This document shows positions 7,219 to 61,785 of a stretch of 64,000 bases of DNA, piece by piece; the first letter of the stretch is position 1, and every line of letters begins with the position of its first letter. The notes below the pieces were generated by a model. The model ran no database searches. It was given only the letters and a program-made list of their open reading frames with translations, and was not told where the DNA came from. This stretch comes from Squalus acanthias (Eukaryota). The position numbers and the translations under genes are program-made. The stretch spans positions 1,674,001-1,738,000 of the forward strand of contig JASTWF010000048.1 of NCBI GenBank assembly GCA_030390025.1, in the 5' to 3' direction.

Positions 7219-7257
7219 GGTTTTTGTTGAGCTCATCCATCTCTCTGAGTCAATGTG
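7219..7257 (-). other. 23-RSS (CACATTG-23-ACAAAAACC)
   Basis: Counted 23-nt spacer; variant heptamer. Confidence 0.9.
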
Positions 7258-7854
7258 AAGACGCCAGGCGCAGTAATACACGGCCGAGTGATTCGCCTGC
7301 AGGCTGGTGGACCTCAGGGTGAACGCGTTGCCATTCGGTCGCTCGGCGGTAAAACCAGCCCCCGTCCCCTCTGCAGTTACAATTTGTACAGTTCGGGAGA
7401 TAAACATCAAATGCGGATCCTTCCCCGGATATTGTCTGTACCAGTACATGTTCGGGGTACTTGCTCCCTTCACAATGCATTTCAGATCCACTCCATCCCC
7501 GGGAAATCTGGAGACAGCGGCGGGAGTCTGGCGGATAGTCTGCGACTTCACATCTGGGAAAGAGACAGGGAGAGGAGGAGGTCAGTAAACAGGGNNNNNN
7601 NNNNNNNNNNNNNNNNNNNNNNNNNNNNNNNNNNNNNNNNNNNNNNNNNNNNNNNNNNNNNNNNNNNNNNNNNNNNNNNNNNNNNNNNNNNNNNNNNNNN
7701 NNNNNNNNNNNNNNNNNNNNNNNNNNNNNNNNNNNNNNNNNNNNNNNNNNNNNNNNNNNNNNNNNNNNNNNNNNNNNNNNNNNNNAACAAGAATTATTTT
7801 TTGAAATAATCCCTGACCGTGAAACAAGATAATTACACCCAGTAACAGATATAT
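7258..7854 (-). pseudogene. TRBV: TRBV family F1; V exon open (7258-7553) but leader (7818-7854) starts ATA
   Basis: V: SQTIRQ..LKC..WYRQ..HSAVYYCAWR. Paralogs start ATG TAT CTG, here ATA TAT CTG; upstream ATG at 7882 is out of frame. Confidence 0.8.
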
Positions 7855-8229
7855 TTTTTGCTGGAATTTTTTCCCTTATCATGAAAGGAGCTAGAACAGG
7901 AGACTTGTGTCTTGTGTGGATCCAACCCGCTCTGTTCAGATCACTGAGGAAAACATGAAGAGCGTGATGAAGTGATGCAGCTTTGGACAGCCCCGCCTCT
8001 TCCTCTCTGATTGGTAGCCCAGCTACTCCCTCTCTAATTAGAGAAGACAGGAGCTGAAAGTTGCAATGCAGACATATACGGATCAATTGAATGAACACAA
8101 CAGAGGAAGATGGAGCTTAATGTGGGCAATGTGAGATCATCCACTGCCAAACGAAAAAAGAGAGATCAGAAAATGTACCAAATGATGAAAAACTGGGAAC
8201 TGTGGAGGTGCAAAGGGACTTAGGTTTCA

Positions 8230-9424
8230 TAGAAACATAGAAACATAGAAAATAGGTACAGGAGTAGACCATTCGGTCCTTCGAGCCTGCACCGCCATTC
8301 AATGCGTTCATGGCTGAACATGCTACCTCAGTACCCCATTCCTGCTTTCTCGCCATACCCCTTGATCCCCTTAGTTGTGAGTGTTATATCTAACTCCCTT
8401 TTGAATATATTTAGCGAACTGGCCTCAACAACCTTCTGTGGAAGAGAATTCCATAGATTCACCACTCTCTGGGTGAAGAAGTTCCTCCTCAGCTCAGTCC
8501 TAAATGGCTTCCCCTTAATCCTTAGACTGTGACCCCTGGTTCTAGTTTTCCCTACCATTGGGAACATTCTGCCCGCATCTAATTTGTCTAAACCAGTCAG
8601 GATTTTAAATGTCTCTATAAGATCCCCCCTCATTCTTCTGAACTCCAGAGGATACAAGTTCAGTTGACCCAATCTTTCTTGATATGTCAGTCCGGCCATC
8701 CCAGGAATCAATCTAGTGAACCTTCGCTGCACTCCCTCAATAGCAAGAATGTCCTTCCTTAAGTTAGGAGACCAAAACTGCGCACAATACTCCAGGTGTG
8801 GCCTCACCAAGGCCCTGTACAACTGTAGCATCACCTCCCTACTCCTGTACTCAAATCCCCTTGCTATGAAGGCCATCATTCCGTTTGCTTTCTTGACTGC
8901 CTGCTGCACTTGCATTCCCACCTTCAGTGACTGATGTACCATGACGCCCAGGTCTCGTTGCACGTCCCCTTTCCCTAATCTGCCACCATTCAGGTAATAG
9001 TCCGCCTCTCTATTTTTACCACCAAAGTGGATAACCTCACATTTATCCACATTGTACTTCATCTGCCATATATTTGCCCATTCACCCAACCTATCCAAGT
9101 CACTCTGTAGCCTCCTAGCATCTTCCTCATTGTTCACACTGCCTCCCAATTTAGTGTCATCCGCAAATTTGGAGATATTACATTTAATCCCTTCGTCCAA
9201 ATCATTAATATATAATGTAAACAGCTGGGGTCCCAGCACCGAACCCTGCGGTACCCCGCTGGTCACTGCCTGCCATTCTGAAAAGTACCCATTTACTCCT
9301 ACTCTTTGTTTCCTGTGTGCCAACCAGTTCTCAATCCACGTCAACACATTACCCCCAATCCCATGTGCTTTAACTTTGCTCACCAATCTCTTGTGTGGGA
9401 CCTTGTCGAAGGCCTTCTGAAAGT
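8230..9424 (-). mobile_element. Young 5'-truncated CR1 LINE, near-identical to 5628-7203
   Basis: ORF 8328-9386 matches the + copy almost residue for residue; (catagaaa)n tail; apparent TSD GTTTCA at 8224-8229 and 9423-9428; inserted in an older CR1 fragment. Confidence 0.95.
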
Positions 9425-10545
9425 TTCAAGCTTCAGAAATCAATTAACGCTGTTAGACAGGTACAAAAATCAAAAAGGCTAAAGGAATGTTGGCCTTTAT
9501 CTCAAGGGTGTTGGGATACAGAGGAGCGAAAGTTATGCTTCAGTTGTACTGAGTCCTGGTCAGACTCCATCTGGAACAGGACGATCAGTTCTGGGCAACA
9601 CACATCAGGAAAGAGATATTGGCCTTGGAGGGAGTGCAGCGAAGATTCACCAGAATTATACCGGGGCTTAGAGGGTTTATTATGAGGACAGGTTACATAG
9701 ACTAGGCTTGTATTCCACTGATTATAGAAGATTGAGCAGTGATCCTACTGAGGTGTTTAAAATGTTAAAAGTATTGGAGACTGTAGATAGAGAGAAGGTA
9801 TTCCCTCTGGTGAGGGACAGTCCAGAACTTGGGGCCATCAGCTGAGCATTAAAGCGAGGCCGATCAGGGGTCTTGTCTGGAAGCACTTCTTGACACAAAG
9901 AGTCGTTGGAATCTGGCATTCTCTCGCCCAATTGGCTGTTGAGGCTAGAGATCAATTCGAGATTTCGAAACATAGATTTTTGATCGGTAAGTGTATCATG
10001 GGTTACGGAAGCAGCTGGAGTTTTGGTTCCGATGCTGAACATCACACTATCGGAAATATATCAATCCTTTAGAGAGGGTGCAGAGGAGATTTAATAAATG
10101 GTACCAGGGACGAGGGTCTCCAGTTACATTGAGAGACTAGAGAAGATGGGATTGTTCTCCTTAGGGCATGTACGAATAAGGGGGGATTTAATGGAAGTGT
10201 TCAAAATCATGAAGGGTTTTGCTAAAGTAAATCAGGAGAAACTGTTTCCAGTAGCATGAGCTTCGGTAACCAGTGGGCACAAATTTAAGGACCAGATAGG
10301 GTATGATGACTTCTTATTGTACAGCGTGTTGTTATGGTTTGGAATGCACTGCCCGAATGGGTGGAGGAAGCAGATTCAATAATAACTTTCCAAAGGCAAT
10401 TGGTTACAAACTTGAACCGGGACGGTTACTGGGCTGTGGAGCAAAGGCACGGGAATAGGACTAATTGGATAGCTCTATGAAAGCCCCAGTACAGGCACGT
10501 GGGGCAGAATGACCTCCTTCCGTTCTGTACAATTTTATGATTCTA
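9425..10545 (+). mobile_element. Old degenerate CR1 fragments
   Basis: Decayed RT C-terminus and 3'UTR similarity to the young CR1; paralogs at ~16790-18060, 47340-48615, 54830-56105. Confidence 0.75.
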
Positions 10546-10585
10546 TGAGATGGTGGCAGAGTAGTTGCACCGAAATAAAATCTAG

Positions 10586-10604
10586 TGCTGCCACCTGGTG
10601 GCGG
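10586..10604 (-). promoter_or_regulatory. CTCF motif, F2 type
   Basis: Minus strand CCGCCACCAGGTGGCAGCA, 27 bp beyond the nonamer. Confidence 0.7.
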
Positions 10605-10631
10605 ATAATAAACTCCCATTCATCCGCTGCA

Positions 10632-10670
10632 GGTTTTTGTAGCTGAGGAGCCGCTTTCTCAAACGCTGTG
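10632..10670 (-). other. 23-RSS (CACAGCG-23-ACAAAAACC)
   Basis: Counted. Confidence 0.95.
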
Positions 10671-11585
10671 CGGTACTACAAGCACAGTAATAGACAGCGC
10701 TGTGAGAGGGAGAGGCGGCGCTCAGTTCCAACGTAAACAGCGTAGTTCTTCTTCTTTCTGCCTTAAAAGACTCGGCCGTGTAGCTCGTAACAGCATCTGT
10801 TCCAGCAGAAAAGAAAAGAGCTTCTAGTGCCCGGTCGGGTTGTTGTCTGTACCAGAACATGTTGGGATAAGCAGTATTCGTCAGCGTGCATCTGAGCGTG
10901 GTCGACTGTCCTGCTCCAATCGATAGGACAGAAGGCGACTGCTCCACGTACGAGGCGAGTATTTCTGTCGAATGCAACATCGATTAATTTCTTATTTTTG
11001 TCAATAATTGGTTAGGGCGCACACTACAGAGAACAATAACTCCCATTCGTAAAGCGCCACTCACGGCCTCAGAAAGTCACAACGCTGTTTACAACAAATG
11101 AAAGACAGATTAAAGTGTAGTCATCGTTGTAGTGTAGGAAAGGAGCCAGCCAATTTGTGCTCAGCAATCTCCCACAAATTGCATTGAAGTAAATCAGCAA
11201 TATATCTGGGTTTTGGTGCTTGTTGTGGGATTAATGCTGGCCTAGGACACCGGCGACAACTTCGCTGCTCTTCTTCCAACAGTGCAATGGGATAATTGAC
11301 GTCCACCTGAGCTCGTTTTAAGGCCTTATCTGAAAGACGGAACCTCCGAAAGTGCAGCACTCCCTCAGTGCTGGTCTCGGGAGTGCCAGCATAGATTTCC
11401 TTCTCAAGTCTCAGGAATAATACTCCAATGCAAATCCTCTGATTCGGAGGCAAGGTTTCTAACAGCTGAACAAGAGCTGACATTATAATACATTATTCTA
11501 CAAAGACCTCTGCATAAATTTGTTACTTTGACTTACGTGGGATCAGTATCAGCATCAACGTTAGATAATGAGCTTCATGAAACAT
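10671..11585 (-). CDS. TRBV: TRBV family F2, intact: leader 11537-11585, V exon 10671-10964
   Basis: Leader MFHEAHYLTLMLILIP + GTAAGT donor, phase 1; V with LRC, WYRQ, YYCACS. Confidence 0.9.
11035..11483 (-). mobile_element. tRNA-derived DeuSINE-like (SacSINE1-like) element in F2 intron
   Basis: tRNA-like head and a Deu-domain-like core (..gaagaagagcag..gtgtcctagg..) recognised from memory; copies in all six F2 introns. Confidence 0.7.
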
Positions 11586-11705
11586 GATTTATTTATTCGA
11601 CACTGCCTCGCTGTGTGATTGAGTGTAGCTCAATACCACGTTTGAAGGCAGTTTGTCTGTTGGATCTGATTAAATACGAAGCGTCCGGTTGTAATTGTTA
11701 CTCCC

Positions 11706-11716
11706 ACGTCACTTCC
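11706..11716 (-). promoter_or_regulatory. F2 promoter ETS/CRE composite (GGAAGTGACGT), TRBV decamer-like
   Basis: ~120 bp upstream of ATG; also at 29755, 42952, 49788 (GGAAGTGATGT), with variants at ~19235 and ~57275. Confidence 0.6.
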
Positions 11717-11904
11717 TGCATAACCCCCGCTCCTTCCCATTCCTTTGGTAGTTCAGCAACTTCAATGAACCGTACAGCACGGAAGGTTAAGGAGAGAAGG
11801 AATAGGTGTGTTCAAAATCATGAACGGTTTAGAGAGAGTTAATACGGTGAAACTATATCCACTAGCAATATGTTAGATAACTAGAGCACACAGACTTAAG
11901 ATAA

Positions 11905-12760
11905 GCACATAGGAAATAAAGCAGGATTAGGCCATAGGCCCTCGAGCCAGCTCTGCCATTCAATAAGATCATGGCTGATCATCCAACTCAAATTGAATTT
12001 CCTGCCCGATCTCATATCCATTGATTCCCCTAGAGTACAAAATTCTATCGATCTCATCCTTGAATATACTCAAAAACTCAGCATTCATAGTCCACTGGGG
12101 TACAGAATTCCAAAGATTCAAAGCCCTCTGTTTGAAGAAATTCCTCCTCATCTTGATCTCAAATAGCCTTCCCCTTATCCTGAGACTATGCCCCCTAGTT
12201 CTAGACACTCAAGTCAGGGGAAAATACCTCACAGCATCTACCCTCTCAATCCCCTCCAGAATCTTGTATGTTTTAATGAGATCACCTCTCATTCTTCTAA
12301 ACTGCAGAAAGTCTACACCCATTCTACAAAATCTCTCATTATAGGACAGCCCTCTCATCCCAGGAATCAATCTAGTGAACCTTCGTTTCACTGCCTCCAA
12401 GGCAAGTATATCCTTCCTTAGATAAGGAGACCAAAACTGTGCACAGTACTCCAGGTGTGGTCTCACCAAGGCCCTGTTTAATTGTAGCAAGACTTCTTTA
12501 CACTTATGCTCTAAACACTTTTCAATAAAGGCGTACATGCCATTTGCCTTCCTTATTGCTTGCTGTACCGGCATGCTAGCTTTCTGTGTTTCTTGCACGA
12601 GGACACCCAAATCTCTTCTGAACACCAACATTTGAAAGTTTCTCACCATTTAAAAATCATTCTGTTTTTCTATTCCTCCTACCAAAGTGAATAACCTCAC
12701 ATTTCCCTACATTATACTCCATCTTCCACATTACTGCCCACTAACGTAGTCTATCTATAT
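11905..12760 (-). mobile_element. CR1 3' fragment
   Basis: ORFs 12209-12649 and 11969-12208 (LVRPHLEYC, TRGHSLRI). Confidence 0.85.
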
Positions 12761-14829
12761 CCCTATAATTGGCAAAAGAACGAGCGGGGAGATGTGGAAA
12801 CATAAATTTTATTCTGCAGTGAGTTCTTTTAATCTGGAATGCATTGCCTGAAAGGGCAGTGGAAGCAGATTCAATAATAACTTTCAGAAAGGAATTGGAT
12901 ATAAACTTGAAAAATAATTTTTAAAAGCAGGGCTATGGTGAATGAGCAGTTAGTGAGACTAAATTTATAGGAGCGACCAAAACTAGGGGTCACAAATATA
13001 AGATAAACACTAATAAATCAAACCGAGAATTCAGGGATAATATCCTCACCCAAAGTGTGCTGATAATGTAGAACTTGATACCACATGGAGTGGTTGAGGG
13101 AAATAGCATAAATGCATTTAAGCGGAATGTAGATAAGTATGTGAGGGAGGAAGGAATAGAAGGATATATTGATGAGGGTAATCGAAGAGGGGTGGGATGA
13201 AGCCGGTGGGGTCTCGTTGGGCAGGCCTTTCAAAAAGGCGGCACAGACTCGATGGGCCGAATGGCCTTCATCTGGGCTGTAGGATCGCATGCCTGTATAA
13301 GATACGCAACATTGTTGGGACAAAGTGCTCTCCTGTTTCAGGCAGTGCGGGTTTCAGTTCCTTTGCGCAAAACGAGAATTCAAGGGTGAAACTTTTTCTG
13401 GGCTGAATACGCAGGTTATTTGAAATAACACGTCAACAGGCCCCTAGCGTCTGATAGAGAAGCGGCTAAACGGTTGTCAACAGATGCTGAAACCGCCGTC
13501 ATGAGGCTGGTGTCCCGCTGACAAACGTATCTAGAGGCGCATCTCGACTTTGTGAACAGCGTGAAACTTCAGTGACACGTTTAAGGATTCTAAGATTAAC
13601 AATGTCCTATTGGTATGAGAAAGTTCAACTTAGAGCAGTGAAGGTTAAGGGGAGGATTGATAGAGGTGTTCAAAATCATGAAGGTTTTGATAGATTAATT
13701 AAGGGGAAATAGTCTCCAGTGGCCGCAGGATCGGTAACCAGAGGAGGCAGATAAAAGGTGATTTACAGAAGAACCACAGGGGGAGAGGAGGATAATGTGT
13801 TTAATCTGCGAGTTGTTATGATCTGGAATGCACCGTCTGAAAGGGCGGTGGAAGAAGGTTGATTCGTAACTTTCAAAAGTGAATTTGATAAAATCTTGAG
13901 GGGAAAATTTACAGGCCTATGGGGAAAGAGAAGGGGAGTGGAACTGATCGGACAGCTCTTCCAAAGAGCCGGTACAGGCACAATGGGCAAAATGGAGTCC
14001 ATCTGTGCTCCATCTGTGGTGCATCATTCTAAGGTTCTATGATAATCAGCGCATCTCTGGTCACTTACGCAATCCGACAAATCGGGGAGGGATTTGTACC
14101 CCCTCTGCTGAGGTGATCCTGGGAATTATTCAGAGGAATAATCGGATGGTACGTGTGACTCCTTCCCATATTCCTCCGTCCGCTCTTTCAACTCAGTTAC
14201 TAACCCATTGAACCCTCCGCCTCATCTACTTCTTATAATGTTGAGAATATCTTAAAGAAAATGACACCCAAACCATTAATACAGCATTCTTAATAATTAA
14301 TCATCAATTTAATTCATCTAAGGTNNNNNNNNNNNNNNNNNNNNNNNNNNNNNNNNNNNNNNNNNNNNNNNNNNNNNNNNNNNNNNNNNNNNNNNNNNNN
14401 NNNNNNNNNNNNNNNNNNNNNNNNNNNNNNNNNNNNNNNNNNNNNNNNNNNNNNNNNNNNNNNNNNNNNNNNNNNNNNNNNNNNNNNNNNNNNNNNNNNN
14501 NNNNATAGAGAGATGGGTGGATGGATGGATGGATGGTTGGCTGGACGATGGTTGAATGGATTGATAGAAGGATGGATGGATGGATGGATGAATGGATGGA
14601 TGGATGGAAGGATGGATGGATGGATGGATGGACGGACGTACGGATAAGCGGGTGGACGTATAGTTAGGGCTTAGTTGGTTAAATTAAGAGGTCAGGCTAA
14701 GAATCAATTGGAACTTTCAAGACCGAGATTGATAGATATTTGTTGGGAAGTGCATCGAGGAATATGGAGCAATGGTGATTACATTGAGTTGAGACACACA
14801 TCAGCCATGATTTCATTGAATGGGAAGTC

Positions 14830-15030
14830 AGGCTCGAGGGTCTGAATGGCCCCGTCTTCTTCCTAGGTAACAGGCTCGAGTAGTTACCCGGCCTTCTCCT
14901 GTAGCTGTGTAACTGGTTCGATTGCCAGATTGCCACTTCCTGCTCCTAGGTAACAGGCAAGAGGAATATATTACCTCTTCCTGTTCCTGTGTAACAGACA
15001 CAAGGAAATTGAATGGCCTCCTCTTAATCC
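14830..15030 (+). repeat. ~40-bp tandem repeat derived from the CR1 3' end
   Basis: Repeated aacaggctcgag..tggcc..cctgttcct.tgt units; also at ~34320-34520, 38040-38340, 45665-45870, 52870-53080. Confidence 0.7.
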
Positions 15031-15076
15031 TGTCTTCGAGCAAAACATATTCAATCAACTGAGTGTTTCGTGGTCC

Positions 15077-15096
15077 TAGAGCGCCCTCTGCTGTCC
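15077..15096 (-). promoter_or_regulatory. CTCF motif, F1 type
   Basis: Minus strand GGACAGCAGAGGGCGCTCTA. Confidence 0.7.
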
Positions 15097-15923
15097 AAGT
15101 GGAGAAAGAAAACACAGTGTTCAGTGTGTAAAATCCACCAGTCTTTGAATTTTAGTTCCTTCTTTATATCTTTCCATCCTTCTTTCTGCCATTCTTTCAG
15201 TCTTTCGTTCGTTCTCTCTCCCTTTTTTTCCTGGTTTTCTTTCTTGATATCTATTACTTTTTTCTCTCCTTCTACATTTCATTTTACCATTCTGCAGTAC
15301 ATCGAACAATCTATCTTTGCACCTTCTCTGATCCCTTTATATACAATGGTCAAAGTGGGAGGTTTTAAGGAGCGTCTTAAAGGAGGAAAGAGAGGTAGCG
15401 AGGCGGACAGGTTTAGGAAGGGAATTCCAGAGTTTAGGGCCCAGGCAACAGAAGGCACGGCCAACGATGTTTGAGCGATTGTTATCAGGGATGCGAAGCA
15501 GGGCAGAATTAGAGGAGCACAGATATCTCGGGGGCTTTGGGTGCTGAAGGAGATTACTGAGATAGGGAGGGGCGAGGCCATGGAGGGATTTGAAAACAAG
15601 TATGAGAATTTTGAAATCGACGCGCTGCTTACCCGGGAGCCAATCTTGAAGATCTCTATCAGGTCACCCCTCAGCCTTCTCCTTTCGAGAGAAAAGATCC
15701 CCAGCCTGTTCAGCCTTTCATGAAAGTTATAACTTTTCAGTTCTGGTATCATTCTTGTTATTCCTGATTTGCAGCTTCTTCGGTGCCTCGACATCTAATC
15801 TATCATATTAAATCAAACCCGTCTCCTCTTCTTCTCAAAAGCACGTTCGCTCTCCAAAATAATCCAAACAGGGCGTAGCAGCGCGCGGTTTTATTTTAAA
15901 TAAGTGTTTCCTGCCGCCTTTCG

Positions 15924-15962
15924 GGTATTTGTTCAGCACCTCCATCTCTCTGAGTCACTGTG
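15924..15962 (-). other. 23-RSS (CACAGTG-23-ACAAATACC)
   Basis: Counted; nonamer variant. Confidence 0.9.
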
Positions 15963-16554
15963 AACACTCCAGGTGCAGTAATACACGGCCGAGTGATTAA
16001 CCGCAGGCTGGAGGACTTCAGGTTGAAGATGTTGTCATTCGATCGCTCGGCGGTAAAGCCGTCCACCGTCCCCTCTGCAGTTAGACTTTTTACAGTTAGG
16101 GAGATAAACATCAACTGCGGCTCCTTCGCTGGATATTGTCAGTAACAGTACATGTTAGGGGAACCTGCTCCCTCCACAGAGCATTTCAGTTCCACTCCAT
16201 CCCCAGGAATTCTGGAGACAGCGGCGGGCGTCTGGCGGATAGTCTGTGAGTTTAGGTCTGATAAATAAAGGGAGAAGGTCAGTCAACAGTGANNNNNNNN
16301 NNNNNNNNNNNNNNNNNNNNNNNNNNNNNNNNNNNNNNNNNNNNNNNNNNNNNNNNNNNNNNNNNNNNNNNNNNNNNNNNNNNNNNNNNNNNNNNNNNNN
16401 NNNNNNNNNNNNNNNNNNNNNNNNNNNNNNNNNNNNNNNNNNNNNNNNNNNNNNNNNNNNNNNGAAAACGTAAAGAAGGGCTATTGACAAGAATGATTTT
16501 TTTATATAATCCCTTACGGTCAAACAAGATAATTATACCCAGTAACAGATACAA
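15963..16554 (-). pseudogene. TRBV: TRBV F1 pseudogene (V exon 15963-16257, leader 16518-16554)
   Basis: Leader starts TTG; conserved W is C, followed by TGA (MYCY*Q); 1-nt deletion in FR3 near 15999. Confidence 0.9.
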
Positions 16555-18100: not shown

Positions 18101-18119
18101 TGCTGCCACCTGGTGGTGG
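18101..18119 (-). promoter_or_regulatory. CTCF motif, F2 type
   Basis: CCACCACCAGGTGGCAGCA. Confidence 0.7.
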
Positions 18120-18153
18120 AAAATGAGCAGTGAACTCCCATTCATCCATTGCA

Positions 18154-18192
18154 GGTTTTTGTCGCTGGGGAGCCGCTTTCTCAAATGCTGTG
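18154..18192 (-). other. 23-RSS (CACAGCA-23-ACAAAAACC)
   Basis: Counted. Confidence 0.9.
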
Positions 18193-20733: not shown

Positions 20734-20772
20734 GGTTTTTGTAGCACGGTTCAATCTGAGTGTATCTCTGTG
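20734..20772 (-). other. 23-RSS (CACAGAG-23-ACAAAAACC)
   Basis: Counted. Confidence 0.92.
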
Positions 20773-23712: not shown

Positions 23713-23751
23713 GGTTTTTGTTGAGCTCCTCCATCTCTCTGAGTCACTGTG
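23713..23751 (-). other. Canonical 23-RSS (CACAGTG-23-ACAAAAACC)
   Basis: Counted. Confidence 0.97.
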
Positions 23752-24286
23752 AAGACTCCAGGCGCAGTAATACACGGCCGAGTGATTCGCCAGCAGGTGG
23801 GAGGACTTCAGGTTGAACTCGTTGTCATTCGGTCTCTCGGCGGTAAAACCGTAAACCGTCCCCTCTGCATTCACGTGATTAGCAATCGTGGAGTAAAACA
23901 TTAACTGCGGCTCCTTCCCCGGGTCCCGTCTGTACCAGTACATGTATCCGCTACTGGCGCCTTCCACCTCGCACTTCAGTTCCACTCCCTCCCCAGGAAT
24001 ATTGGAGAGAGCGGCGGGAGTCTGGCGGATCGTCTGCGAGTTCACATCTGGGAAAGAGACGGTGAGAGGAAGAGATAAGTAAACAGGCGAATTCTCTGTT
24101 GTGGTGTTAAAAAGAATTAAAGAGCGAGAGAATGAAGGACAGAACGAAGGGAAGAATAGAAAAAAACGAAAGGAATAAAGAAAGAAGGAAAGAAATAAAG
24201 AGTAAAGAAAGTTTATTGAAAAAGACTATTGTTTGAAAAAGTCCCTTACATTGAAATAAGATCATGAGACTCATTAACAGATACAT
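23752..24286 (-). CDS. TRBV: TRBV F1 (TRBV30-like), intact: leader 24250-24286, V exon 23752-24047
   Basis: MYLLMSLMILFQ|YVNSQTIRQ..LKC..WYRR..YYCAWS. Confidence 0.92.
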
Positions 24287-34953: not shown

Positions 34954-34992
34954 GGTTTTTGTTCAGCTCCTCCATCTCTCTGATTCACTGTG
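34954..34992 (-). other. Canonical 23-RSS
   Basis: CACAGTG-23-ACAAAAACC, counted. Confidence 0.97.
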
Positions 34993-35564
34993 CAGACTCC
35001 AGGCGCAGTAATACACGGCCGAGTGATTCGCCCGCAGGCTGGAGCACTTCAGGTTGAACTCGTTGTCATTCGGTCGCTCGGCGCTAAAACCGTCCACCGC
35101 CCCCTCTGGGTCGACCATATTTGTACCAAAGGAGTAAAACACCAATTGCGGCTCCTTCCCCAGGTATTGTCTGTACCAGGATATTCGATTGCTACTGTCC
35201 CCCTCCGCATCGCACTTCAGTTCAACTCCAACCCCGGGAATGTTGGAGACAGCGTCCGGAGTCTGGAGGATATTCTGCGAGTTCACGGCTGGGAAAGAGA
35301 CGGGAAGAGAGGAATTCAGTAAACGGTGANNNNNNNNNNNNNNNNNNNNNNNNNNNNNNNNNNNNNNNNNNNNNNNNNNNNNNNNNNNNNNNNNNNNNNN
35401 NNNNNNNNNNNNNNNNNNNNNNNNNNNNNNNNNNNNNNNNNNNNNNNNNNNNNNNNNNNNNNNNNNNNNNNNNNNNNNNNNNNAGGAACATTATTAATAA
35501 GATTTATTGTTTGAAAAAGTCACTTACTGTGAAACAAGATCATCAGACCCAGTAACAGATACAT
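34993..35564 (-). CDS. TRBV: TRBV F1, intact: leader 35528-35564, V exon 34993-35288
   Basis: MYLLLGLMILFH|TVNSQNILQ..YYCAWS; extra Cys in FR3 (NLKCSS). Confidence 0.88.
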
Positions 35565-38755: not shown

Positions 38756-38794
38756 GGTTTTTGTTCAGCTCCTCCATCTCTCTGAGTCACTGTG
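38756..38794 (-). other. Canonical 23-RSS
   Basis: Counted. Confidence 0.97.
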
Positions 38795-39307
38795 CAGACT
38801 CCAGGCGCAGTAATACACGGCCGAATGATTCGCCCGCAGGCTGGAGGATTTCAGGTTGAACTCGTCATCTGTTGGTCGCTCGGCGGTAAAACCGTCCTCC
38901 GTCCCCTCTGCATTTACACTTTGTTCAACTAGGGAGTAAAAAATCAACTGCGGCTCCTTCCCCGGGTATTGTCTGTACCAGAACATGCGAGGGTTACTGG
39001 TGCCCTTCACAGAGCATTTCAGTTCCACTCCATTCTCGAGAACTCTGGAGACAGCGGCGGGAGTCTGGCGAATAGTTTTCGAGTTCACGTCTGGGAAAGA
39101 GACAGGGAGAGAGGAGGATGTCAGTAAATTGGAACTTTCGGGGGAATGCAGCAGGAATGAAATGAAGTATGGAAACAGAGCAAGAAAGAAAGAAGGAAGG
39201 ACAGAGAGAAAGACAGCAAGTAAGAAACAATGGTTGTTAACTAAAATTATTGTGTGAAAAAATCACTTACATTGAAATAATATCACGAGAACCAGTAACA
39301 GATACAT
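38795..39307 (-). CDS. TRBV: TRBV F1, intact: leader 39271-39307, V exon 38795-39090
   Basis: MYLLLVLVILFQ|YVNSKTIRQ..CSVKGTSNPRMFWYRQ..YYCAWS. Confidence 0.92.
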
Positions 39308-46286: not shown

Positions 46287-46325
46287 GGTTTTTGTTGAGC
46301 TCCTCCATCTCTTTGAGTCACTGTG
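46287..46325 (-). other. Canonical 23-RSS
   Basis: Counted. Confidence 0.97.
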
Positions 46326-47056
46326 AAGACTCCAGGCGCAGTAATACACGGCCGAGTGATTCGCCCGCAGGCTGGAGGACTTCAGGGTGAACTCGTTCCC
46401 ATTCGGTCGCTCGGAGGTAAAACTGTCCACCGTCCCCTCTGCAGTTACACTTTGTACAGTTAGGGACATAAACATCATCTGCGGCTCCTTCCCTGGATGT
46501 TGTCTGTACCAGTACATGTAAGGTGTACTTGCTCCCTCGACAGTGCATTTCAGTTCCATTCGATCCCCAGGAATGTTGGAGACAGCGGCGGGAGTCTGGT
46601 GGATTGTCTGCGAGTTCACGGCTTGGAAAGGGATGGGGAGAGAGGAGAAGGTCAGTAAACAGGGACATTCGTGGCAATGGAGAGAGAAAGAACGAAAGAA
46701 AGTAAGAACAACATAATTAAATTAAGAGAACAAGGTTGTTGGAGCAAATGCACTATTTCTGGTTCGTCACAAATAAAGGAGATAAATTGTGTCAAATAAG
46801 GGCGGGATGGACATTTAGTTAGCAGGGTTCGTTCTGTAATATTTGAATCAATGAGTGACATTTCCACGCCAATCCATATTACAAGGAGAGCTCCACTAAA
46901 CCTAATGGCTCCTGTCTAACTACAAGTGTCTGCGGGTTTAGAATATTAATCTTGAAAGAAAGAAAGAACACGTAAAGAAAGGCAATGAACAAAAATTAAT
47001 TTTTGAACTAGTCCCTTACGGTGAAAAAAGATCATTAGACACAGTAACAGATACAT
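46326..47056 (-). CDS. TRBV: TRBV F1, intact: leader 47020-47056, V exon 46326-46621
   Basis: MYLLLCLMIFFH|PVNSQTIHQ..KCTVEGASTPYMYWYRQ..YYCAWS; AAG acceptor. Confidence 0.9.
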
Positions 47057-49667: not shown

Positions 49668-49984
49668 GATTTATTCTTTCGACGCTGACTCGCTGTGTGA
49701 TCGGGTGTAGCTCAATACCACGTTTGAAGGCAGTTTCTCTGTTGGATCTGATTAAATACGAAGCGTCCGGTTGTAATTGTTACTCCCACATCACTTCCTG
49801 CGTAACCCACGCTCCTTCCCATACCTTCGGTAGTTCAGCAACTTCATTGAAACGTACAGCACTGAAGGTTAAGGAGAGAACGAAAGGATGTGTTCAAAAT
49901 CATGAACGGTTTTGAGAGAGTTAATACGGTGAAACTATATCCACTAGCATGATGTTAGATAACAAGATCACAGAGACTTAAGAT

Positions 49985-52414: not shown

Positions 52415-52445
52415 AAGATAGATGGAAAAATAGATAGATAGATAC

Positions 52446-52511
<66 letters not shown>

Positions 52512-52520
52512 CGATAGAAG
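52415..52520. repeat. (GATA)n microsatellite
   Basis: Directly visible. Confidence 0.9.
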
Positions 52521-53122
52521 GATNNNNNNNNNNNNNNNNNNNNNNNNNNNNNNNNNNNNNNNNNNNNNNNNNNNNNNNNNNNNNNNNNNNNNNNNNNNNN
52601 NNNNNNNNNNNNNNNNNNNNNNNNNNNNNNNNNNNNNNNNNNNNNNNNNNNNNNNNNNNNNNGGATGGATGGATGCACGGACGTACGGATGAGCGGATGG
52701 ACGTACAGATAGGGCTTAGTTGGTTAAATTAAGAGATCAGGCTAAGAATCAATTGGAACTTTCAAGACTGAGATTGATAGATATTTGTTGGGTAAGTGCA
52801 TCGAGGATTATGGAGCAATGGTGATTAGATTGAGTTGAGACACCCATCAGCCATGATTTCATTGTTTGGGAAGTCAGGCTCGAGGGTCTGAATGGCCTCG
52901 TCTTCTTCCTAGGTGACAGGCTCGAGTAGTTACCCGGATTTCTCCTGCAGCTGTGTAACTGGTTCGATTGCCAGATTGCCACTTCCTGCTCCTAGGTAAC
53001 AGGCAAGAGGAATATACGACCTCTTCCTGTTCCTGTGTAACAGACACAAGGAAATTGAATGGCCTCCTCGTAATCCTGTCTTCGAGCAAAACATATTCAA
53101 TCAACTGAGTGTTTCGTGGTCC

Positions 53123-53142
53123 TAGAGCGCCCTCTGCTGTCC
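53123..53142 (-). promoter_or_regulatory. CTCF motif, F1 type
   Basis: GGACAGCAGAGGGCGCTCTA. Confidence 0.7.
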
Positions 53143-53970
53143 AAGTGGAGAAAGAAAACACAGTGTTCAGTGTGTAAAATCCACCAGTCTTTGTATTTTA
53201 GTTCCTTCTTTATATCTTTCTATCCTTCTTTCTGCCATTCTTTCAGTCTTTCGTTCGTTCTCTCTCCCTTTTTTTCCTGGTTTTCTTTCTTGATATCTAT
53301 TACTTTTTTTCTCTCCTTCTACATTTCATTTTATCATTCTGCAGTACATCTAACAATCTATCTTTGCACCTTCTCTGATCCCTTTATATACAATGGTCAA
53401 AGTGGGAGGTTTTAAGGAGCGTCTTAAAGGAGGAAAGAGAGGTAGCGAGGCGGACAGGTTTAGGAAGGGAATTCCAGAGCTTAGGGCCGAGGCAACAGAA
53501 GGCACGGCCACCGATGGTTGAGCGATTGTTATCAGGGATGCGAAGCAGGGTAGAATTAGAGGAGCACAGATATATCGGGGGCTTTGGGGGCTGAAGGAGA
53601 TTACAGAGATAGGGAGGGGCGAGGCGAAGGAGGGATTTGAAAACAAGGATGAGAAGTTTGAAATCGAGGCGCTGCTTACCCGGGAACCAATCTTGAAGAC
53701 CTCTATCAGGTCACCACTCAGACTTCTCCTTTCTAGAGAAAAGAGCCCCAGCCTGTTCAGCCTTTCATGATAGTTATAACTTCACAGTTCCTGTGTCATT
53801 CTTGTTATTCCTGATTTGCAGCTTCTCAAGTGCCTCTACATCTCATCTCTGAGGTTAAATCAAACACGTCTCCTCTTCTTCTCAAAAGCACGTTCGCTCT
53901 CCAAAATAAACCAAACAGGGCATAGCAGCGCGCGGTTTTATTTTAAACAGGTGTTTCCTGCCGCCTTTCG

Positions 53971-54009
53971 GGTATTTGTTGAGCACCTCCATCTCTCTGA
54001 GTCACTGTG
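53971..54009 (-). other. 23-RSS (CACAGTG-23-ACAAATACC)
   Basis: Counted. Confidence 0.9.
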
Positions 54010-54597
54010 AACACTCCAGGTGCAGTAATACACGGCCGAGTGATTAACCGCAGGCTGGTGGACTTCAGGTTGAAGATGTTGTCATTTGATCGCTCGGCGG
54101 TAAAGCCGTCCACCGTCCCCTCTGCAGTTAGACTTTTTACAGTTAGGGAGATAAACATCAACTGCGGCTCCTTCGCTGGATATTGTCAGTAACAGTACAT
54201 GTTAGGGGAACCTGGTCACTCCACAGAGCATTTCAGTTCCGCTCCATCCCCAGGAATTCTGGAGACAGCGGCGGGCGTCTGGCGGATAGTCTGTGAGTTC
54301 ACGTCTGAGAAATAAATGGAGAAGGTCAGTCAACAGTGANNNNNNNNNNNNNNNNNNNNNNNNNNNNNNNNNNNNNNNNNNNNNNNNNNNNNNNNNNNNN
54401 NNNNNNNNNNNNNNNNNNNNNNNNNNNNNNNNNNNNNNNNNNNNNNNNNNNNNNNNNNNNNNNNNNNNNNNNNNNNNNNNNNNNNNNNNNNNNNNNNNNN
54501 NNNNNNGAAAACGTAAAGAAGGGCTATTGACAAGAATGATTTTTTTATATAATCCCTTACGGTGAAACAAGATAATTATACCCAGTAACAGCAACAA
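54010..54597 (-). pseudogene. TRBV: TRBV F1 pseudogene (V exon 54010-54304, leader 54561-54597)
   Basis: Same TTG start, TGA stop and FR3 frameshift as the 15963 copy. Confidence 0.9.
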
Positions 54598-56144
54598 CTT
54601 TTATTCATGCTTTTCCCTTAATAATGAAAAGAGCGAGAACAGGAGAGTTGTTTCTTGTGATGATCCAACCAGCTATGTTCAAATCACTGAGGAAATCATG
54701 AACAGCATTATGACAGCCCCGACCCATCCGCTCTGACACACAGCCCCACCTCTCCCTCTCTGATTGGCAGCCCAGCTGCTCCATCTCTGATTGACATTAA
54801 TTTAAGCAGATGGGTACTGGAATTTACAAAGCGGACATAGACAGATTAAATGAATGAACAAAACAGAGATAGATGAACTTTAATGTGGGCAAAGGTGAGG
54901 TCATCCACTGTGACCCAAAGAAAGATAGTGTCGAGTATTTTCTAAATGGTGAGAAGCTGGGAACTGTAGAGGGGCAAAGGGATTTAGGTGTCGAGCTAGA
55001 CAAATCACATAAGAGCCAGCAGGCATGTACCAAAATCAAAAAGGCTAATAGAATGTTGGCCTTTATCTCAAGGGTGCTGGAATACAGAGGAAAGAAAGTT
55101 ATACTTCAGTTGTATAGCGTCCTGGTCAGACTCCATCTGGAACAGGACGTTCAGTTCTGAGTAAACTCTTCAGGAAGGATATATTGGTCTTGGAGGGAGT
55201 GCAGCGAAGATTCAACAGAATGATACCGGGGCTTGGAGGGTTACTTTTTGAGGACAGATTACATAGACTAGGCTTGTATTCCATTGAATATAGAAGATTG
55301 AGCAGTGATCCTACTGAGGTGTTTAAAATGTTAAAAGTATTGGAGACTTTAGATAGAGAGAAGGTATTCCCTCTGGTGAGGGGCAGCCCAGAACTGGGGG
55401 CCATCAACTGAGCATTAAAGCGAGGCCGATCAAGGGTCATATCTGGAGGCACCTCTTGACCTAAAGGGTAGTGGACATCTGGAATTCTCTCTCCCATTTG
55501 GCTGCTGAGGCTAGAGGTCAATCGGGTATTTCAAAACTTAGATTTTTGTTAGGTAAGTGTTACGGAACCAGCTGGAGTTATGGTTCCTCTTCTGATCACA
55601 CACTTTCGGAAGCATATCAAGGACTTCGACAGGGTGAAGAGGAGAATTACAAAATAGTACTAGGGACGAGGGTTTCCAGTCACATTGAGAGACTAGAGAA
55701 GATGGGATTGTTCTCCTTCGGGCTGAGACGGTTAAGGATCGATTTAATGGAAGTGTTCAAAATCATGAAGGGTTTTGATAGAGTAAATAACGAGAAACTA
55801 CATCCAGTGACAGAAGCGTCTGTAACCAGTGGGAACATATTTAAGGACCAGATAGGGAGATGATGAGTTTTTTTATTGTAGAACGAGTTGTTATGGTTTG
55901 GAATGCACTGCCCGAATAGGTGGAGGAAGCAGATTCAATAATACGTTTCCAAAAGGAATTGGATACACACTTCAAGCGGAACGTTTACAGGGTTATGGGG
56001 CAAAGGCACGGGAATAGGACTAATTGGATAGCTCTTTGAAAAGACCAGTATAGGTATGTGGGGCCGAATGATCGCCTTCCGTGCTCTATCATTCTATGAT
56101 TCTATGACTTGGTGGCAGAATATTTGCTCCGAAATAAAATCTAG

Positions 56145-56163
56145 TGCTGCCACCTGGTGGTGG
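56145..56163 (-). promoter_or_regulatory. CTCF motif, F2 type
   Basis: CCACCACCAGGTGGCAGCA. Confidence 0.7.
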
Positions 56164-56197
56164 AAAATGAGCAGTGAAATCCCATTCATCCGTTGCA

Positions 56198-56236
56198 GGT
56201 TTTTGTCGCTGGGGAGCCGCTTTCTCAAACGCTGTG
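56198..56236 (-). other. 23-RSS (CACAGCG-23-ACAAAAACC)
   Basis: Counted. Confidence 0.95.
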
Positions 56237-57154
56237 TGATACTACAAGCACAGTAATAGACAGCGGTGTGAGACGGAGAGGAGGCGCTCAGTTCCAAAGT
56301 AAACAGCGTAGTGCTAATTCTTTCGGCCTTAAAAGTCTCGGTCGTGTACTTCGTAACATCACCTGCTACAGCAGAATAGAAAAGAGCATCTAATGCCCGG
56401 TCGGGTTCTTGTCTGTACCAGTACATTTGGAAATAAGCAGTATTCCTCAGCGTGCATCTGAGCGTGGTCGACTCTCCTGCTCCAATCGATAGGACAGAAG
56501 GCAACTGCTCCACGTACGAGGCGAGTATTCCTGTCGAATGCAACATCGATTAATTTCTTATTTTTTTCAATAATTGATTTGAGCACGGACTGCAATGAAA
56601 AAGAACTTCCATTCATAAAGCGCTTTCACGAACTCAAAAATTCACAAAGCTCTTTACAGCCAATGAAGTGCTGATGAAATTGTCGTCATTGTTGTAATGT
56701 CGGAAAGGAGACAGCCAATTTCAGCACAGCAAGCTCCCACATACTGCATTGAAATAAATGACCAGTACATCTAATTTTTGGTGTTTGCTTTGGGATTAAT
56801 GTTGGCCCAGGACACCGGCGACAACTACGCTGCTCTTCTTCTAATAGTGCCCTGGGATCATTTACGTCTACCTGAGAGGGCAGCTCGGTTTACTGCCTTA
56901 TCTGAAAGATGGCACCTCCGATAGTGCAGCACTTCCTCAGTGCTGGTCTCGGGAGTGTCAGCATAGATTTTGTGCTCAAGTCTCAGGAGTAAGACTCCAA
57001 CCCAAAACCTATGATTCCGAGGCAAGGTTTCGAACAGCTGAACAACAACTGACATTATAATACATTATTCTACAAAGATCTCATAAGTTTGTTATTTTGA
57101 CTTACGTGGGATCATTGTCATCATCAATGTTAGATAATAAAATTCATGAAACAT
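56237..57154 (-). CDS. TRBV: TRBV F2, intact: leader 57106-57154, V exon 56237-56530
   Basis: Leader MFHEFYYLTLMMTMIP; V ..QMYWYRQ..YYCACSI. Confidence 0.9.
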
Positions 57155-58765
57155 GATTTATTCATTCGACAATGGCTCACAGTGCGAACTAGTGCAGCTC
57201 CAAACCACGTTTAAAATGCGATTTGTCGAGTGGATCTGATTAAATACGAAGCATCCGGTTGTAATTGTCACTCTTACGCCACTTCCTGTGCAAGTCACGC
57301 CCCATCCCATTCCTTCCCTAGTTTCGTAACTTCATAGAACCATACAGCACAGAACGTAAAGGAAAGGACAAATAGAGGTGATAAATATTAAACATTACGA
57401 ATGGTTTCGATAGAGTTGATAGGGAGAATCTAAATCCACTGGCAGGAGGGTCGTTAACCAGAGGGCACAGATTTAAGATAATAGGCAAAAGGACCAGCGG
57501 GGAGATGAGGAGACGTAAATTTTATTGCAGAGAGTTGTCATGATCTGGAATGCATTGCCTGAAATGGCGATGGAAGCAGATTCAATAATTACTTCTGCAA
57601 GGGAATTGGATATAAACTTGATATGGAAAAAAACAGGACTATGGGGAAACAGCAGGGGAGTGGGACTAAATTGATAATCGGGACCAAAACTAGGGGCTTC
57701 TAGGATATACACTAATACATGCAAGAGGGTATTCAGGAGTACCCTCGTTACACAAAGTGTGGTGAGACTCTGAAACTTGCTACCGCATGGAATGGTTGTG
57801 TCGAATAGCATAGCTGCATTTAAGGGGAGGCTAGATAATTACATGAGAGAGAAAGGAATTGAAGGATATGCTAATGGGCGTACTTGAAGAGGGGTAGGAC
57901 GATGCCGGTGGGGTTCAAATTGGATAGGTCTTTCAAAGAGCCGCATCAGACCAGTCGGTCCGAATGGCCTACTTCAGTGCTGTAGGATTCTATGATTCTT
58001 GGAAAAATAGAACGTTGCTGGGAAAAATGCTCTCCTGTTTCAGGCAGTGCAGGTTTGAGTTCCGATGTGCTGAGCGAGAATTCAAGGGTAAATTCTTTGC
58101 TGAGCTGAATTCGCAGATTCTTTGAAAAACAAATCAAAAGCCATCTAGAGTCTGATAGAGAAGCGGGTAAACGGTTTTCAACAGATTCTGAAACCGCCGT
58201 CATGCGGCAGGTGTCCCGGAGACAAACATATCTGAAGATGCGTCTCGTCTTCGCACAGTGTGAACCATCGGTGAGAATTGCAAGGGTTCTAATATTAAGT
58301 ATTTCCTAATTGTATGGGGTGTTCTCCTTAGAGCAAAGAATGTAAGGCGGAGCTTTACCAGAATGATAGCAGGAGTGAGCGACTCAACTTTGCTGCAGAG
58401 ACTGGAGAAGCTGGTGTTGTTCTGTCTACAGCACGCAATCTGGTTCTTAAATGACGATAATATCTTAAAAGAATGACATTCAGTACGTTGATATATTACA
58501 TTTTTAATTAATTAAAAGCAATTTGTAATNNNNNNNNNNNNNNNNNNNNNNNNNNNNNNNNNNNNNNNNNNNNNNNNNNNNNNNNNNNNNNNNNNNNNNN
58601 NNNNNNNNNNNNNNNNNNNNNNNNNNNNNNNNNNNNNNNNNNNNNNNNNNNNNNNNNNNNNNNNNNNNNNNNNNNNNNNNNNNNNNNNNNNNNNNNNNNN
58701 NNNNNNNNNCCCGGTCTATCTAAATATGATTAGAACTAGTTGGGGGTTGGTGTCTGAGACGGGTG

Positions 58766-58804
58766 GGTTTTTGTAGCACGGTTCAATCTGAGTATATCTC
58801 TGTG
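58766..58804 (-). other. 23-RSS (CACAGAG-23-ACAAAAACC)
   Basis: Counted. Confidence 0.92.
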
Positions 58805-59956
58805 CATCACTGCAGGCGCAGAAATACCGCGCCGTGTCGTTCGGCCGCACCACCGATATCTTCAGATCGAAGGAGTTATCTGCAGTTTTCTTTGCCCAAA
58901 ATCTCTCCGTGATCCACTCCGACCTGGTCGGGTCACCTTCATTCACCGCATACAAGAGGTCCTGGAGTCCTCGGCCCGGGACCTGACGGTACCAGTACAT
59001 ATAAGGATCAGTGCTGCGTTGGGTACACGGGATAGTCACAGACTCGCCCTCTATCACCGACACATACTCCCGGGACTGCACCATCTTCTGAGACCCGCCA
59101 ACACCTGGAAGGAAAATAGAAGTGAACAGCAAAGAGAGACAGTTATTTCCCCCGAAATTAGACCCACTAACCTGTTTAATTATTAGTTGTTATTTGACTG
59201 ATTTACCCCTTTCCCTCGCACTCTTGCTTTTCATTTCAATCGATGTATTTTCTGTATTTTCACATAAATCTAATTGAGCTGACCAAAGGATTGGATAGGC
59301 TAGATAAGGCGAAATTATTTCCCCTGTCTACCCTATCACCGCCCTGTTCCGAAGCTCCTTAACAGACACAATCTACCGGCTCTACCGCACGACATTCTGG
59401 TTTAAGTCGATTTGGCAAAACAAGATTTATCTTCAAAAGCCGCAGGCACTTGTAATCAGACAGGAGCCAGTAGGTTTAGTGGAGCTCTCCTTATAATATA
59501 GATTGGCGTGGAAATGTCACTCACTGGTTCAACTATTATAGAAAAATCCCTGTTAACTAAATGTCCCTCCCGCCCTAATTTAACACAATTTATCACCTTT
59601 ATGTGTCACTAAAGAGATATAGTCTACTTGCTCCAACAACCCTGTTCTCTTCCTTTCCTTTGTTCTTTCTTTCGATTTAGCTATTTTCTTTATGTCTTTC
59701 TTTTTTCTTTATTTATGTCTTTCTTTCCATCTTTCCTTCGTTCTATCATTCTTTCTTTCTATCTTTCTCTCTATCTTTTAATCTCATCCATCCATTCATT
59801 CTTTCTCTTTTTGTTGAAAATTAAAACTTGTTTTGTAGGCTCTTTAATAGATTCCTACTCCAAAAGCTGAAAACCTCCATGTGACACCGGGCTCTCGCAT
59901 TACTTACCCGCCAATAGGAACAGCGGCAACGTGCAGGACAGGAGGCAAGTCCGCAT
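58805..59956 (-). CDS. TRBV: TRBV F3, intact: leader 59908-59956, V exon 58805-59104
   Basis: Leader MRTCLLSCTLPLFLLAG; V ..DTARYFCACSD. Confidence 0.88.
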
Positions 59957-61277
59957 GGTCCGGGACAGAGCGTCTGAGACCGGGAGCCCCTCGACCAACA
60001 AGCTGTCCAGAGACTGGAGCAATGACACTGTTGTGTGCAAGGCCCGAACTGGCGCGTGTAAACGGCAACGTTCTCTATCATTCATAAGAAAACATTGAAC
60101 ATACAATGCACCGCCCCGCCCTCTATGACTGGCAGCCCCGCCCCTCACTCGATGATTGATAGCACCTTTCCGCCCTCTATATTTGACTGCCGCGTCATAT
60201 TTCCCTAATTGACAGCCACCCCACCGTCTCCAATGAACAGTCCGGCCCCTCGCGCGCTGATTGGCAGGAAGTGGAACAGATGGGATCCGAGCGTTGCAAA
60301 GGGGACATAGAGATTAGTTGAGCGGGCAAAACAGTGCAAGAAGGAACAGTGGAACAAGTGGGGAAGTGCGAGGTCATCCACTTGGGATCTAAGAAAGATA
60401 GATCAGAGCATTTTCCAAATGGTGTTAAGCTAGGAATTGCGGAGGAGCAAGGGGATTTAAGTGCCCAGGTAAACAATTCACTTAATGCCGGTAGACAGGG
60501 AAAAAAGGAATCAAAAGGCTAAAGGGATGTTGTCCTTTATCTGAAAGGGTCTGGAATACAAAGGGCAGGATGTTATTCTTCTATCGTATAGAGACTTGGT
60601 CAGACCCCATCGGGAGTACTGAGTTAAATTCTGGGTACCGCACCTCAGGAAGAATATATTAGACTTGGAGGGGATGCAGCGCTGATTCTCCAGACTTTTA
60701 CCCGGGACAGAGGGGATAAAATTATGAGGAAGGATTGCAAAACTTTGCCTATATTACGTTGAGTATAGAAGATTCAGTGCTGAACTAATTGAGATTTGTA
60801 AATGTTAAATCAAGTTGATAGTGTATATAGAGAGAAACTATTTCTCTGGTGGGGGAGTCCAGGACAGGGGGAGCGTAACCTTAAAGTTAGAGTTAGGTTT
60901 TATCAGGCATTGTGTCAAAAACACCTCTTCACAGAATGGTCGTGGAAATGTGGAACTCTCTCCTCCAAGAGTCTGTTCAGGATAAGGGTCAATTGGAGCT
61001 TTCAGGACTGTGATTGATAGATATTTATTGGGTAAGTGTATCCAAATTCATGGAAAAAAAGCGGTTAGATAGAATGAAGATACTCATCAACCATGATCTT
61101 ATTGGCTGGCATAGCAGTGTCGCGGGGCTGAATGGCCTCCTCCTGTTCCTGTGTATACGGTCCCGAGGATGCTTAATGGCCTTTTCCTGTTCCTATGTAA
61201 CAGGCTCAAGGGGACTGGATGACCTCCTTCTATTGCATATTAAACCATATCACAAGCAAACGTGTGGTTCATGGTCC

Positions 61278-61296
61278 TAGAGCGCCCTCTTCAGTC
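61278..61296 (-). promoter_or_regulatory. CTCF motif, F1 type (variant)
   Basis: GACTGAAGAGGGCGCTCTA. Confidence 0.5.
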
Positions 61297-61746
61297 TCTG
61301 TGGAGAAAGAAAACACATTGTCAGTGTGTAAAAGCTCGACAATCTTTTTACTTCATTTCAAAATTTTTAACTTTTTTTTTCTTTCTGTTTATCTTTCTTT
61401 CTTTCTGTCTATCTTTCTTCCTTTCAAACTGAATGTCTTTCTTTCTATCTTCCTTTCTTTCTTTTCGGACTTGTTTCTTTCTTCATATCATTCTTTCTTG
61501 CTGTCTTTCTGTCCTTTTTCGTTCTCCCTCTCCTTCTTTCCTTCTTTCTTTCTATCTTCCTTTCTATCTTCCTTGCGTTCTTCACTACATCTTTGCAGCT
61601 TCTCCAGAACCTTTTTTAAATGTAATTTCTCACATTTGTTCAAACCCTTTCCTTCTTGTCAAAACACATTCGGTCTGCAAAATAAACCCAACAGGATGCG
61701 GCACCGCGCTGTTTCATCATCAACAGGTGTTGCCTGCAGCCTTTGG

Positions 61747-61785
61747 GGTTTTTGTTGAGCTCATCCATCTCTCTGAGTCACTGTG
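61747..61785 (-). other. Canonical 23-RSS
   Basis: Counted. Confidence 0.97.

Follow-up and report, generated by a model that had tools for sequence, protein, structure and literature searches.

A real AP-1 string with a probably ordinary cause at the heptamer/spacer junction of shark T-cell receptor beta V recombination signals

The stretch of DNA analyzed here (the window) comprises 64,000 nucleotides, positions 1674001 to 1738000 of contig JASTWF010000048.1 of Squalus acanthias (genome, 3.7 Gb), and carries T-cell receptor (TCR) beta variable (V) segments, one group of which has a match to the AP-1 site built into its recombination signal sequences (RSSs). A scan for RSSs located 17 V ends followed by a signal with a 23-base spacer (23-RSS), every one on the minus strand, which fall into the groups F1 (eight copies, with the coding end C-A-W-S), F2 (six copies), and F3 (three copies). 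F1 is a TCR-beta V segment by its layout of V-set exon, heptamer, 23-base spacer, and nonamer, and a structure search with an F1 copy returned TCR beta chains as the top single-domain matches. The same contig carries the diversity (D) segments D1 and D2 (GGGACAG-type, with 12/23 RSSs), joining (J) segments with a 12-RSS, and two TRBC genes, whose products are referred to as C1 and C2. Because V, D, J, and constant (C) elements are linked and C1 resembles a horn shark TCR homologue, with 61 to 64% identity in the constant domain, the locus is a shark TCR-beta locus and the window is part of its V array.

A sequence-only reading of the window had described an AP-1 site across the heptamer/spacer junction of all eight F1 signals and of none of the others, and this description was borne out. 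The string spans the last two heptamer bases and spacer positions 1 to 5; it is TGACTCA in 7 of 8 F1 signals and TGAATCA, with one mismatch, in the eighth, and all eight had been placed correctly, on the minus strand. CACAG-TGACTCA is found at the heptamer starts 15962, 23751, 38794, 46325, 54009, and 61785, CACAT-TGACTCA at 7257, and CACAG-TGAATCA at 34992. None of the nine F2 and F3 signals has an AP-1 match, the junction string being CGTTTGA or CATTTGA in F2 and AGATACA, AGACAGA, or AGATATA in F3. The features of the window are as follows.

7219 to 7553, minus strand: F1 TRBV exon (7258 to 7553) with 23-RSS (7219 to 7257); heptamer CACATTG, TGACTCA at 7246 to 7252.
15924 to 16257, minus strand: F1 TRBV pseudogene (stop, frameshift) with 23-RSS (15924 to 15962); TGACTCA at 15951 to 15957.
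23713 to 24047, minus strand: F1 TRBV open-frame exon with perfect-consensus 23-RSS (23713 to 23751); TGACTCA at 23740 to 23746.
34954 to 35288, minus strand: F1 TRBV open-frame exon with 23-RSS (34954 to 34992); variant TGAATCA at 34981 to 34987.
38756 to 39090, minus strand: F1 TRBV open-frame exon with perfect-consensus 23-RSS (38756 to 38794); TGACTCA at 38783 to 38789; used as search query.
46287 to 46621, minus strand: F1 TRBV exon (5′ edge approximate) with 23-RSS (46287 to 46325); TGACTCA at 46314 to 46320.
53971 to 54304, minus strand: F1 TRBV pseudogene (stop, frameshift) with 23-RSS (53971 to 54009); TGACTCA at 53998 to 54004.
61747 to 62081, minus strand: F1 TRBV open-frame exon with perfect-consensus 23-RSS (61747 to 61785); TGACTCA at 61774 to 61780.
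10632 to 56530, minus strand: control group F2, six TRBV segments with heptamers at 10670, 18192, 28711, 41919, 48744, and 56236; CACAGCG/CACAGCA-TTTGA.
20734 to 59104, minus strand: control group F3, three TRBV segments with heptamers at 20772, 32221, and 58804; heptamer CACAGAG.

The eight F1 signals are near-identical over all 39 RSS bases, and because the copies share almost the whole RSS, their agreement counts as one event, not eight. Two of them (15962 and 54009) belong to frameshifted, stop-bearing pseudogenes in which the perfect site is still present. TGASTCA is not enriched in the window (10 matches versus 12.19 ± 3.69 in shuffled sequences), and 7 of the 10 matches are the F1 sites. 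By eye, the F1 copy at 7257 seems to have ATA in its leader (approximately 7815 to 7860, minus strand), where the other F1 leaders have ATG; given this leader and its CACATTG heptamer, that copy is possibly non-functional.

Across the contig, 1,464,000 of 2,278,436 bases (64%) were surveyed for V ends without use of the RSS; this identified no fewer than 310, belonging to 16 families. F1 accounts for 92 of these and family 2, a second CAWS-ending family distinct from group F2 of the window, for 37, so that 129 of the 310 belong to what we call the CAWS clan. The perfect site is present in 78 of 92 F1 and 31 of 37 family 2 copies (together 109/129) and in none of the 181 other V ends. An AP-1 match in the promoter was found in only 1 of the 92 F1 copies. 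The F1 RSS has 122 exact matches, 53 of them in forward and 69 in reverse orientation, and all 100 of the exact matches listed fall on this contig. Although F1 and family 2 proteins are only 47% identical, their consensus sequences agree at 39 of 39 RSS bases, at 28 of 30 bases before the cysteine codon, and at 18 of the 20 bases that follow the nonamer; farther upstream, agreement drops to 15 of 30. Since this agreement reaches well beyond the site, it points to a single origin of the site and to a larger block that has been held uniform. A third clan member, family 5 (36 copies, 19 of them open), reads TGACACA and lacks the site, and in a tree of the V families (two rows per family, 29 rows) it is sister to family 2 (98/90). 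The end block of family 2 is nearly identical to that of F1 although family 2 lies nearer to family 5 in the tree, a hint that gene conversion may have carried the V end and RSS between F1 and family 2.

The clan is set apart by the quality of its signals. Among open-frame copies, 53 of 71 F1, 26 of 32 family 2, and 5 of 19 family 5 segments combine a perfect heptamer with a perfect nonamer. The remaining 13 families supply a single such copy out of 110, and most of them have none. The clan heptamer is the canonical CACAGTG, that of 12 of the 13 other families CACAGCG, CACGGCG, or CACAGAG. The perfect consensus is absent from all 34 J-RSS rows (one of which is a false J). The F1 coding end, GCCTGGAGTCT, is the same as that of mouse V31 joints, which begin GCCTGGAGTC, and the clan may be related to the 3′-inverted TRBV30/V31 lineage.

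If the AP-1 site were under selection of its own, its letters might be expected to stand out, and the sequence-only reading had itself named an ACTCA no more conserved than the remaining spacer in other species as a reason to abandon the idea. Within this genome that is what was found. After copies with at least 95% identity were collapsed (67 of 88 usable copies retained, 92 found), the F1 differences from consensus were 7/335 at spacer positions 1 to 5, 6/335 at 6 to 10, 5/335 at 11 to 15, and 5/335 at 16 to 20 (P = 0.63); as the copies are related, this and every other conservation P value given here is rough. With F1 and family 2 pooled (125 of 129 copies, 4 having been dropped for more than nine mismatches or for N), the two letters that serve only the AP-1 match, at spacer positions 2 and 3, differ in 9 of 250 cases, compared with 65 of 1,875 at positions 6 to 20 (Fisher P = 0.85). 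The letters that are generic to RSSs, at positions 1, 4, and 5, differ in 4 of 375 and are steadier than this background (P = 0.013). Pseudogenes retain the perfect site about as often as open frames do (18 of 20 versus 61 of 73; P = 0.73). Of the letters that make up the motif, five of seven (the heptamer T-G and spacer positions 1, 4, and 5) are common in RSSs: the C and A at positions 4 and 5 occur in 10 and 12, respectively, of the other 13 V families and in 26 of 34 J-RSS rows (one a false J), and bovine TRBV signals have CTGCA at the corresponding place (PMC2685407).

The D segments lie outside the window, in two convergent D-J-C clusters at contig positions 960540 to 1098960. Cluster 1 (plus strand) consists of D1, 28 J segments, and C1, and cluster 2 (minus strand) of D2, 4 J segments, and C2, both J counts coming from the first J pattern. 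V arrays flank this central pair on both sides, pointing inward, and each arm can therefore reach one cluster by deletion, the other by inversion. The V segments of the window face cluster 2 at a distance of approximately 0.6 Mb; judging from orientation, their joining to cluster 1 would need an inversion. The same V families were observed on both arms.

D1, GGGACAGGGGGGA, and D2, GGGACAGCAACAAC, were located by reading the locus, a stricter first pattern having given no match. In the 3′ RSS of D1, the heptamer is that of the mouse (CACGGTG), 11 of the 23 spacer positions agree with the mouse spacer, and the junction reads TGATAAA; the 3′ RSS of D2 has the heptamer CACTGTG and the junction TGACTGA. 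Neither 3′ RSS contains the AP-1 consensus or the mouse string. Of the 12 V segments in family 6, four that are D-proximal (contig 905217 to 928185) read TGATTCA, the exact mouse D-beta string, beside poor nonamers, from which it follows that such a string arises readily. Compared with that of shark D1, the family 6 spacer agrees at 13 of 23 positions; past position 5 the agreement is 10 of 18 (P = 0.004, for one comparison among many).

Wang et al. reportedly described a c-Fos/AP-1 site at the mouse 3′ D-beta 23-RSS in 2008. The mammalian precedent invoked by the sequence-only reading is sound: at this RSS a putative AP-1 site, TGATTCA, lies at the heptamer/spacer junction and is reported to be bound by c-Fos (PMC2642999, PMC7478721, PMC4144731). 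The changes C4G and A5T and a five-base change reduced cleavage of the mouse RSS relative to the wild type and the other mutants. One of these others is T3A, a change that likewise destroys the AP-1 match; the authors considered the mutant results consistent with an AP-1 role (PMC2642999 Fig. S5). When the D-beta1 RSS was placed on mouse V2 or V31, use rose from 7.0% to 40.9% and 50.0%, respectively, and direct V31-to-J joins were found in 23.5% of one hybridoma set with the D-type RSS; a D-beta RSS unable to bind c-Fos still raised use 4.9-fold for V2 and 5.4-fold for V31 (PMC7478721). RAG favors purine/pyrimidine patterns, with CACAGTG marginally the best heptamer (PMC9723617).

It is likely, in our judgment, that the eight sites descend by copying from a single ancestral perfect-consensus RSS and that the AP-1 match is a by-product of it rather than a selected Fos/Jun site, because the letters specific to AP-1 are no steadier than the spacer background and the other motif letters are ones common in RSSs. 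An ancestral perfect-consensus 23-RSS of a TCR-beta V clan would have spelled AP-1 by coincidence, and the block from the end of framework region 3 to approximately 20 bases past the nonamer would then have spread by duplication and been kept uniform by gene conversion or by selection on the whole signal. RAG would cut the F1 signal efficiently through its consensus heptamer and nonamer, without help from Fos, and the AP-1 match would ride along with a strong RSS and have no part, through Fos, in the order of assembly. Over-use of F1 or occasional D-less joins, the prediction of the sequence-only reading that survives, are plausible through RSS strength rather than Fos, since a consensus heptamer and nonamer would favor RAG cutting. 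Fos/Jun may well bind naked F1 DNA, but on this reading binding would not steer the order of assembly.

Several observations weigh against the by-product reading. In family 2, spacer positions 1 to 5 are steadier than positions 6 to 20 (4/130 versus 34/390; P = 0.032), a point tempered by the same proximal trend in the site-less F2 (1/110 versus 18/330; P = 0.054). The F1 site is the full AP-1 consensus, better than the mouse D-beta site and at the same position. Under a null of independent columns drawn from the 13 other V families, the string has a probability of 0.0014 per lineage, or 0.014 given a CACAGTG heptamer; over 14 lineages, the probability of one or more occurrences is 0.02; such low values, which leave aside that the motif was picked after the fact, suggest that the string is not trivially expected. 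The position of F1 in the V-family tree suggests that the site is old in the clan. The with-site mouse alleles correspond to approximately 5.8- and 7.1-fold gains (calculated from the percentages in PMC7478721) and leave room for a small Fos share. Among the contigs of other species that were aligned to a single copy of F1 (from 4 of the 22 runs listed, chosen by shared query words), the RSS is covered in all four organisms, thinly in one, and the best-supported 40 of 225 rows show no difference at the site. The only spacer differences in these rows are at position 17, in one organism, and at position 22, where the query itself carries a minority letter, so that the whole spacer, not the site alone, looks constant. 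Gene models that read through the RSS (nine copies in six proteins, with codons deduced from residues) include two site-compatible copies (H-S-D-S), both from the whitespotted bamboo shark Chiloscyllium plagiosum. Three of the nine are incompatible and count in favor of the by-product reading, namely, both copies of the ray Hypanus sabinus (H-S-G-S) and one of the bamboo shark C. punctatum (H-S-E-T); one is unclear and three are uninformative.

The sequence-only reading had gone further and taken the site for a signal of the D-beta type. In its fullest form, the site would be a working Fos/Jun element that loads RAG on V segments of the clan. Since the shark D segments lack the site, recombination would then start at V, with V-to-D joining before D-to-J or with direct V-to-J joining, and the largest V clan of a two-cluster locus would rearrange first or skip D, in reversal of the mammalian order. 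Such an element would account for a perfect TGACTCA exactly where the mouse D-beta RSS has its site, for its presence in most clan copies and no other V end, and for its absence from both D 3′ RSSs. There are two precedents for a factor that loads RAG at an RSS, c-Fos at D-beta and RUNX1 at D-delta2 (PMC4144731), and the mouse V31 joins described above show that a D-type RSS on a V segment permits direct V-to-J joining (PMC7478721). We nonetheless consider a working element of this kind quite improbable, and this part of the sequence-only reading is unsupported: the letters specific to AP-1 show no excess conservation, pseudogenes are not depleted for the site, neither the sister family 5 nor the ray homologues have kept the site, the F1 spacer beyond position 5 does not resemble that of D-beta, T3A is tolerated in vitro (PMC2642999), and the Fos site is dispensable on mouse V segments (PMC7478721). 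Were it true, the textbook D-to-J-first order would be reversed and V usage would be tied to Fos; coincidence is the more likely of the two.

A milder version holds that a site that arose by chance now binds Fos/Jun and gives F1 a modest boost in accessibility or usage, imagined as enhancer-like or RAG-recruiting, while the order of assembly is unchanged. With more than 100 perfect sites in the locus, on a clan that makes up 129 of the 310 V ends examined, there would be ample target; the mouse alleles with the site are somewhat stronger than those without (PMC7478721), and the proximal spacer of family 2 is steadier than the distal. Against this stand the same absence of excess conservation, the pseudogenes that keep the site, and 12 of 73 dereplicated open-frame copies that lack it, and the RSS consensus alone accounts for a usage advantage, which makes the milder version doubtful. 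An origin of the F1 RSS as a copy of a D-beta 3′ RSS, a natural counterpart of the RSS replacement made in the mouse, we regard as very improbable. The F1 spacer does match those of mouse D-beta1 and shark D2 at 10 of 23 positions each, but beyond positions 1 to 5 the D-beta match is only 6 of 18 (shuffle P = 0.23), families 3, 6, and 7 equal or exceed F1 in their agreement with the mouse spacer (12, 12, and 11 of 23), and the F1 heptamer differs from those of both D1 and D2. With the match beyond position 5 at the shuffle level, a D-beta origin of the F1 spacer was rejected.

The AP-1 string is thus real and its cause probably ordinary. Approximately 4 in 10 of the V segments examined carry the clan's perfect-consensus RSS. 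In the mouse, V-beta RSSs are described as poor, and this poverty is reported to enforce allelic exclusion (PMC7478721); shark repertoires offer a natural test of that model. This abundance of strong V signals and the two facing clusters, whose constant domains are approximately 35% identical, carry more weight than the string itself.

C1 and C2 are each encoded by four exons and have a hinge cysteine, a transmembrane lysine, and a KRFD end, and they are 34.7% identical over 101 residues. In a tree of C domains (13 rows, from 11 of 17 C-bearing matches, rooted at the midpoint with no outgroup), they fall into two clades (100/100), the C1 clade with eight proteins from seven shark genera and the C2 clade with three Scyliorhinus gene models (61 to 64%). 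Gene models of the catshark S. canicula include both types. Because the two domains are so divergent and both are present in the catshark, C2 possibly represents an old second TCR-beta constant type in sharks. Structure searches with the C1 and C2 domains yielded mostly multi-domain antibodies and gave no ranking of one against the other. Neither two divergent constant types nor a genomic AP-1 site in shark TCR-beta was found described in the literature searched; key shark TCR papers lie outside that literature, and the constant types may already be in print. The available parts of PMC10322711, PMC13433984, PMC11754216, and bioRxiv 2023.05.06.539704 contain no account of shark TRB organization.

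Two further observations concern the window. A V pseudogene of another family at 4450 to 4740 is on the plus strand, opposite to the rest, and has no recognizable RSS. Positions 1 to 3100 and 5640 to 7190 appear by eye to hold decayed reverse transcriptase sequence resembling that of a long interspersed nuclear element, on the minus strand in the intervals separating V segments.

The V segments described here resemble those of nurse shark TCR-beta, for which six families have been described and whose primer peptides YVEQSP and AVYYCAC match F2 (PMC5931798). As at the mouse 3′ D-beta site, an AP-1-type heptad covers the last two heptamer bases and spacer positions 1 to 5 of a 23-RSS in a TCR-beta locus; unlike the mouse site, it lies on V rather than D, reads TGACTCA rather than TGATTCA, and shows no special conservation. 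The clan is likewise comparable to the mouse V2 and V31 replacement alleles in bearing a strong 23-RSS with an AP-1 match on a V-beta segment, but those alleles were engineered, with one V segment per allele, and the increase in their use was seen also without the Fos site. The V-beta RSSs that mice naturally carry are described as poor, in contrast to the perfect heptamer and nonamer of the shark clan (PMC7478721). The arrangement of the locus is most like the paired TRB of salmonids and pike, in which two V-D-J-C units lie in opposite orientation on one chromosome (PMC10464911). In salmonids the units are head to head, with the V segments in the middle and near-identical J copies (PMC10464911), whereas in this shark the constant genes are central, the V arrays lie outside, and the constant domains are only approximately 35% identical.

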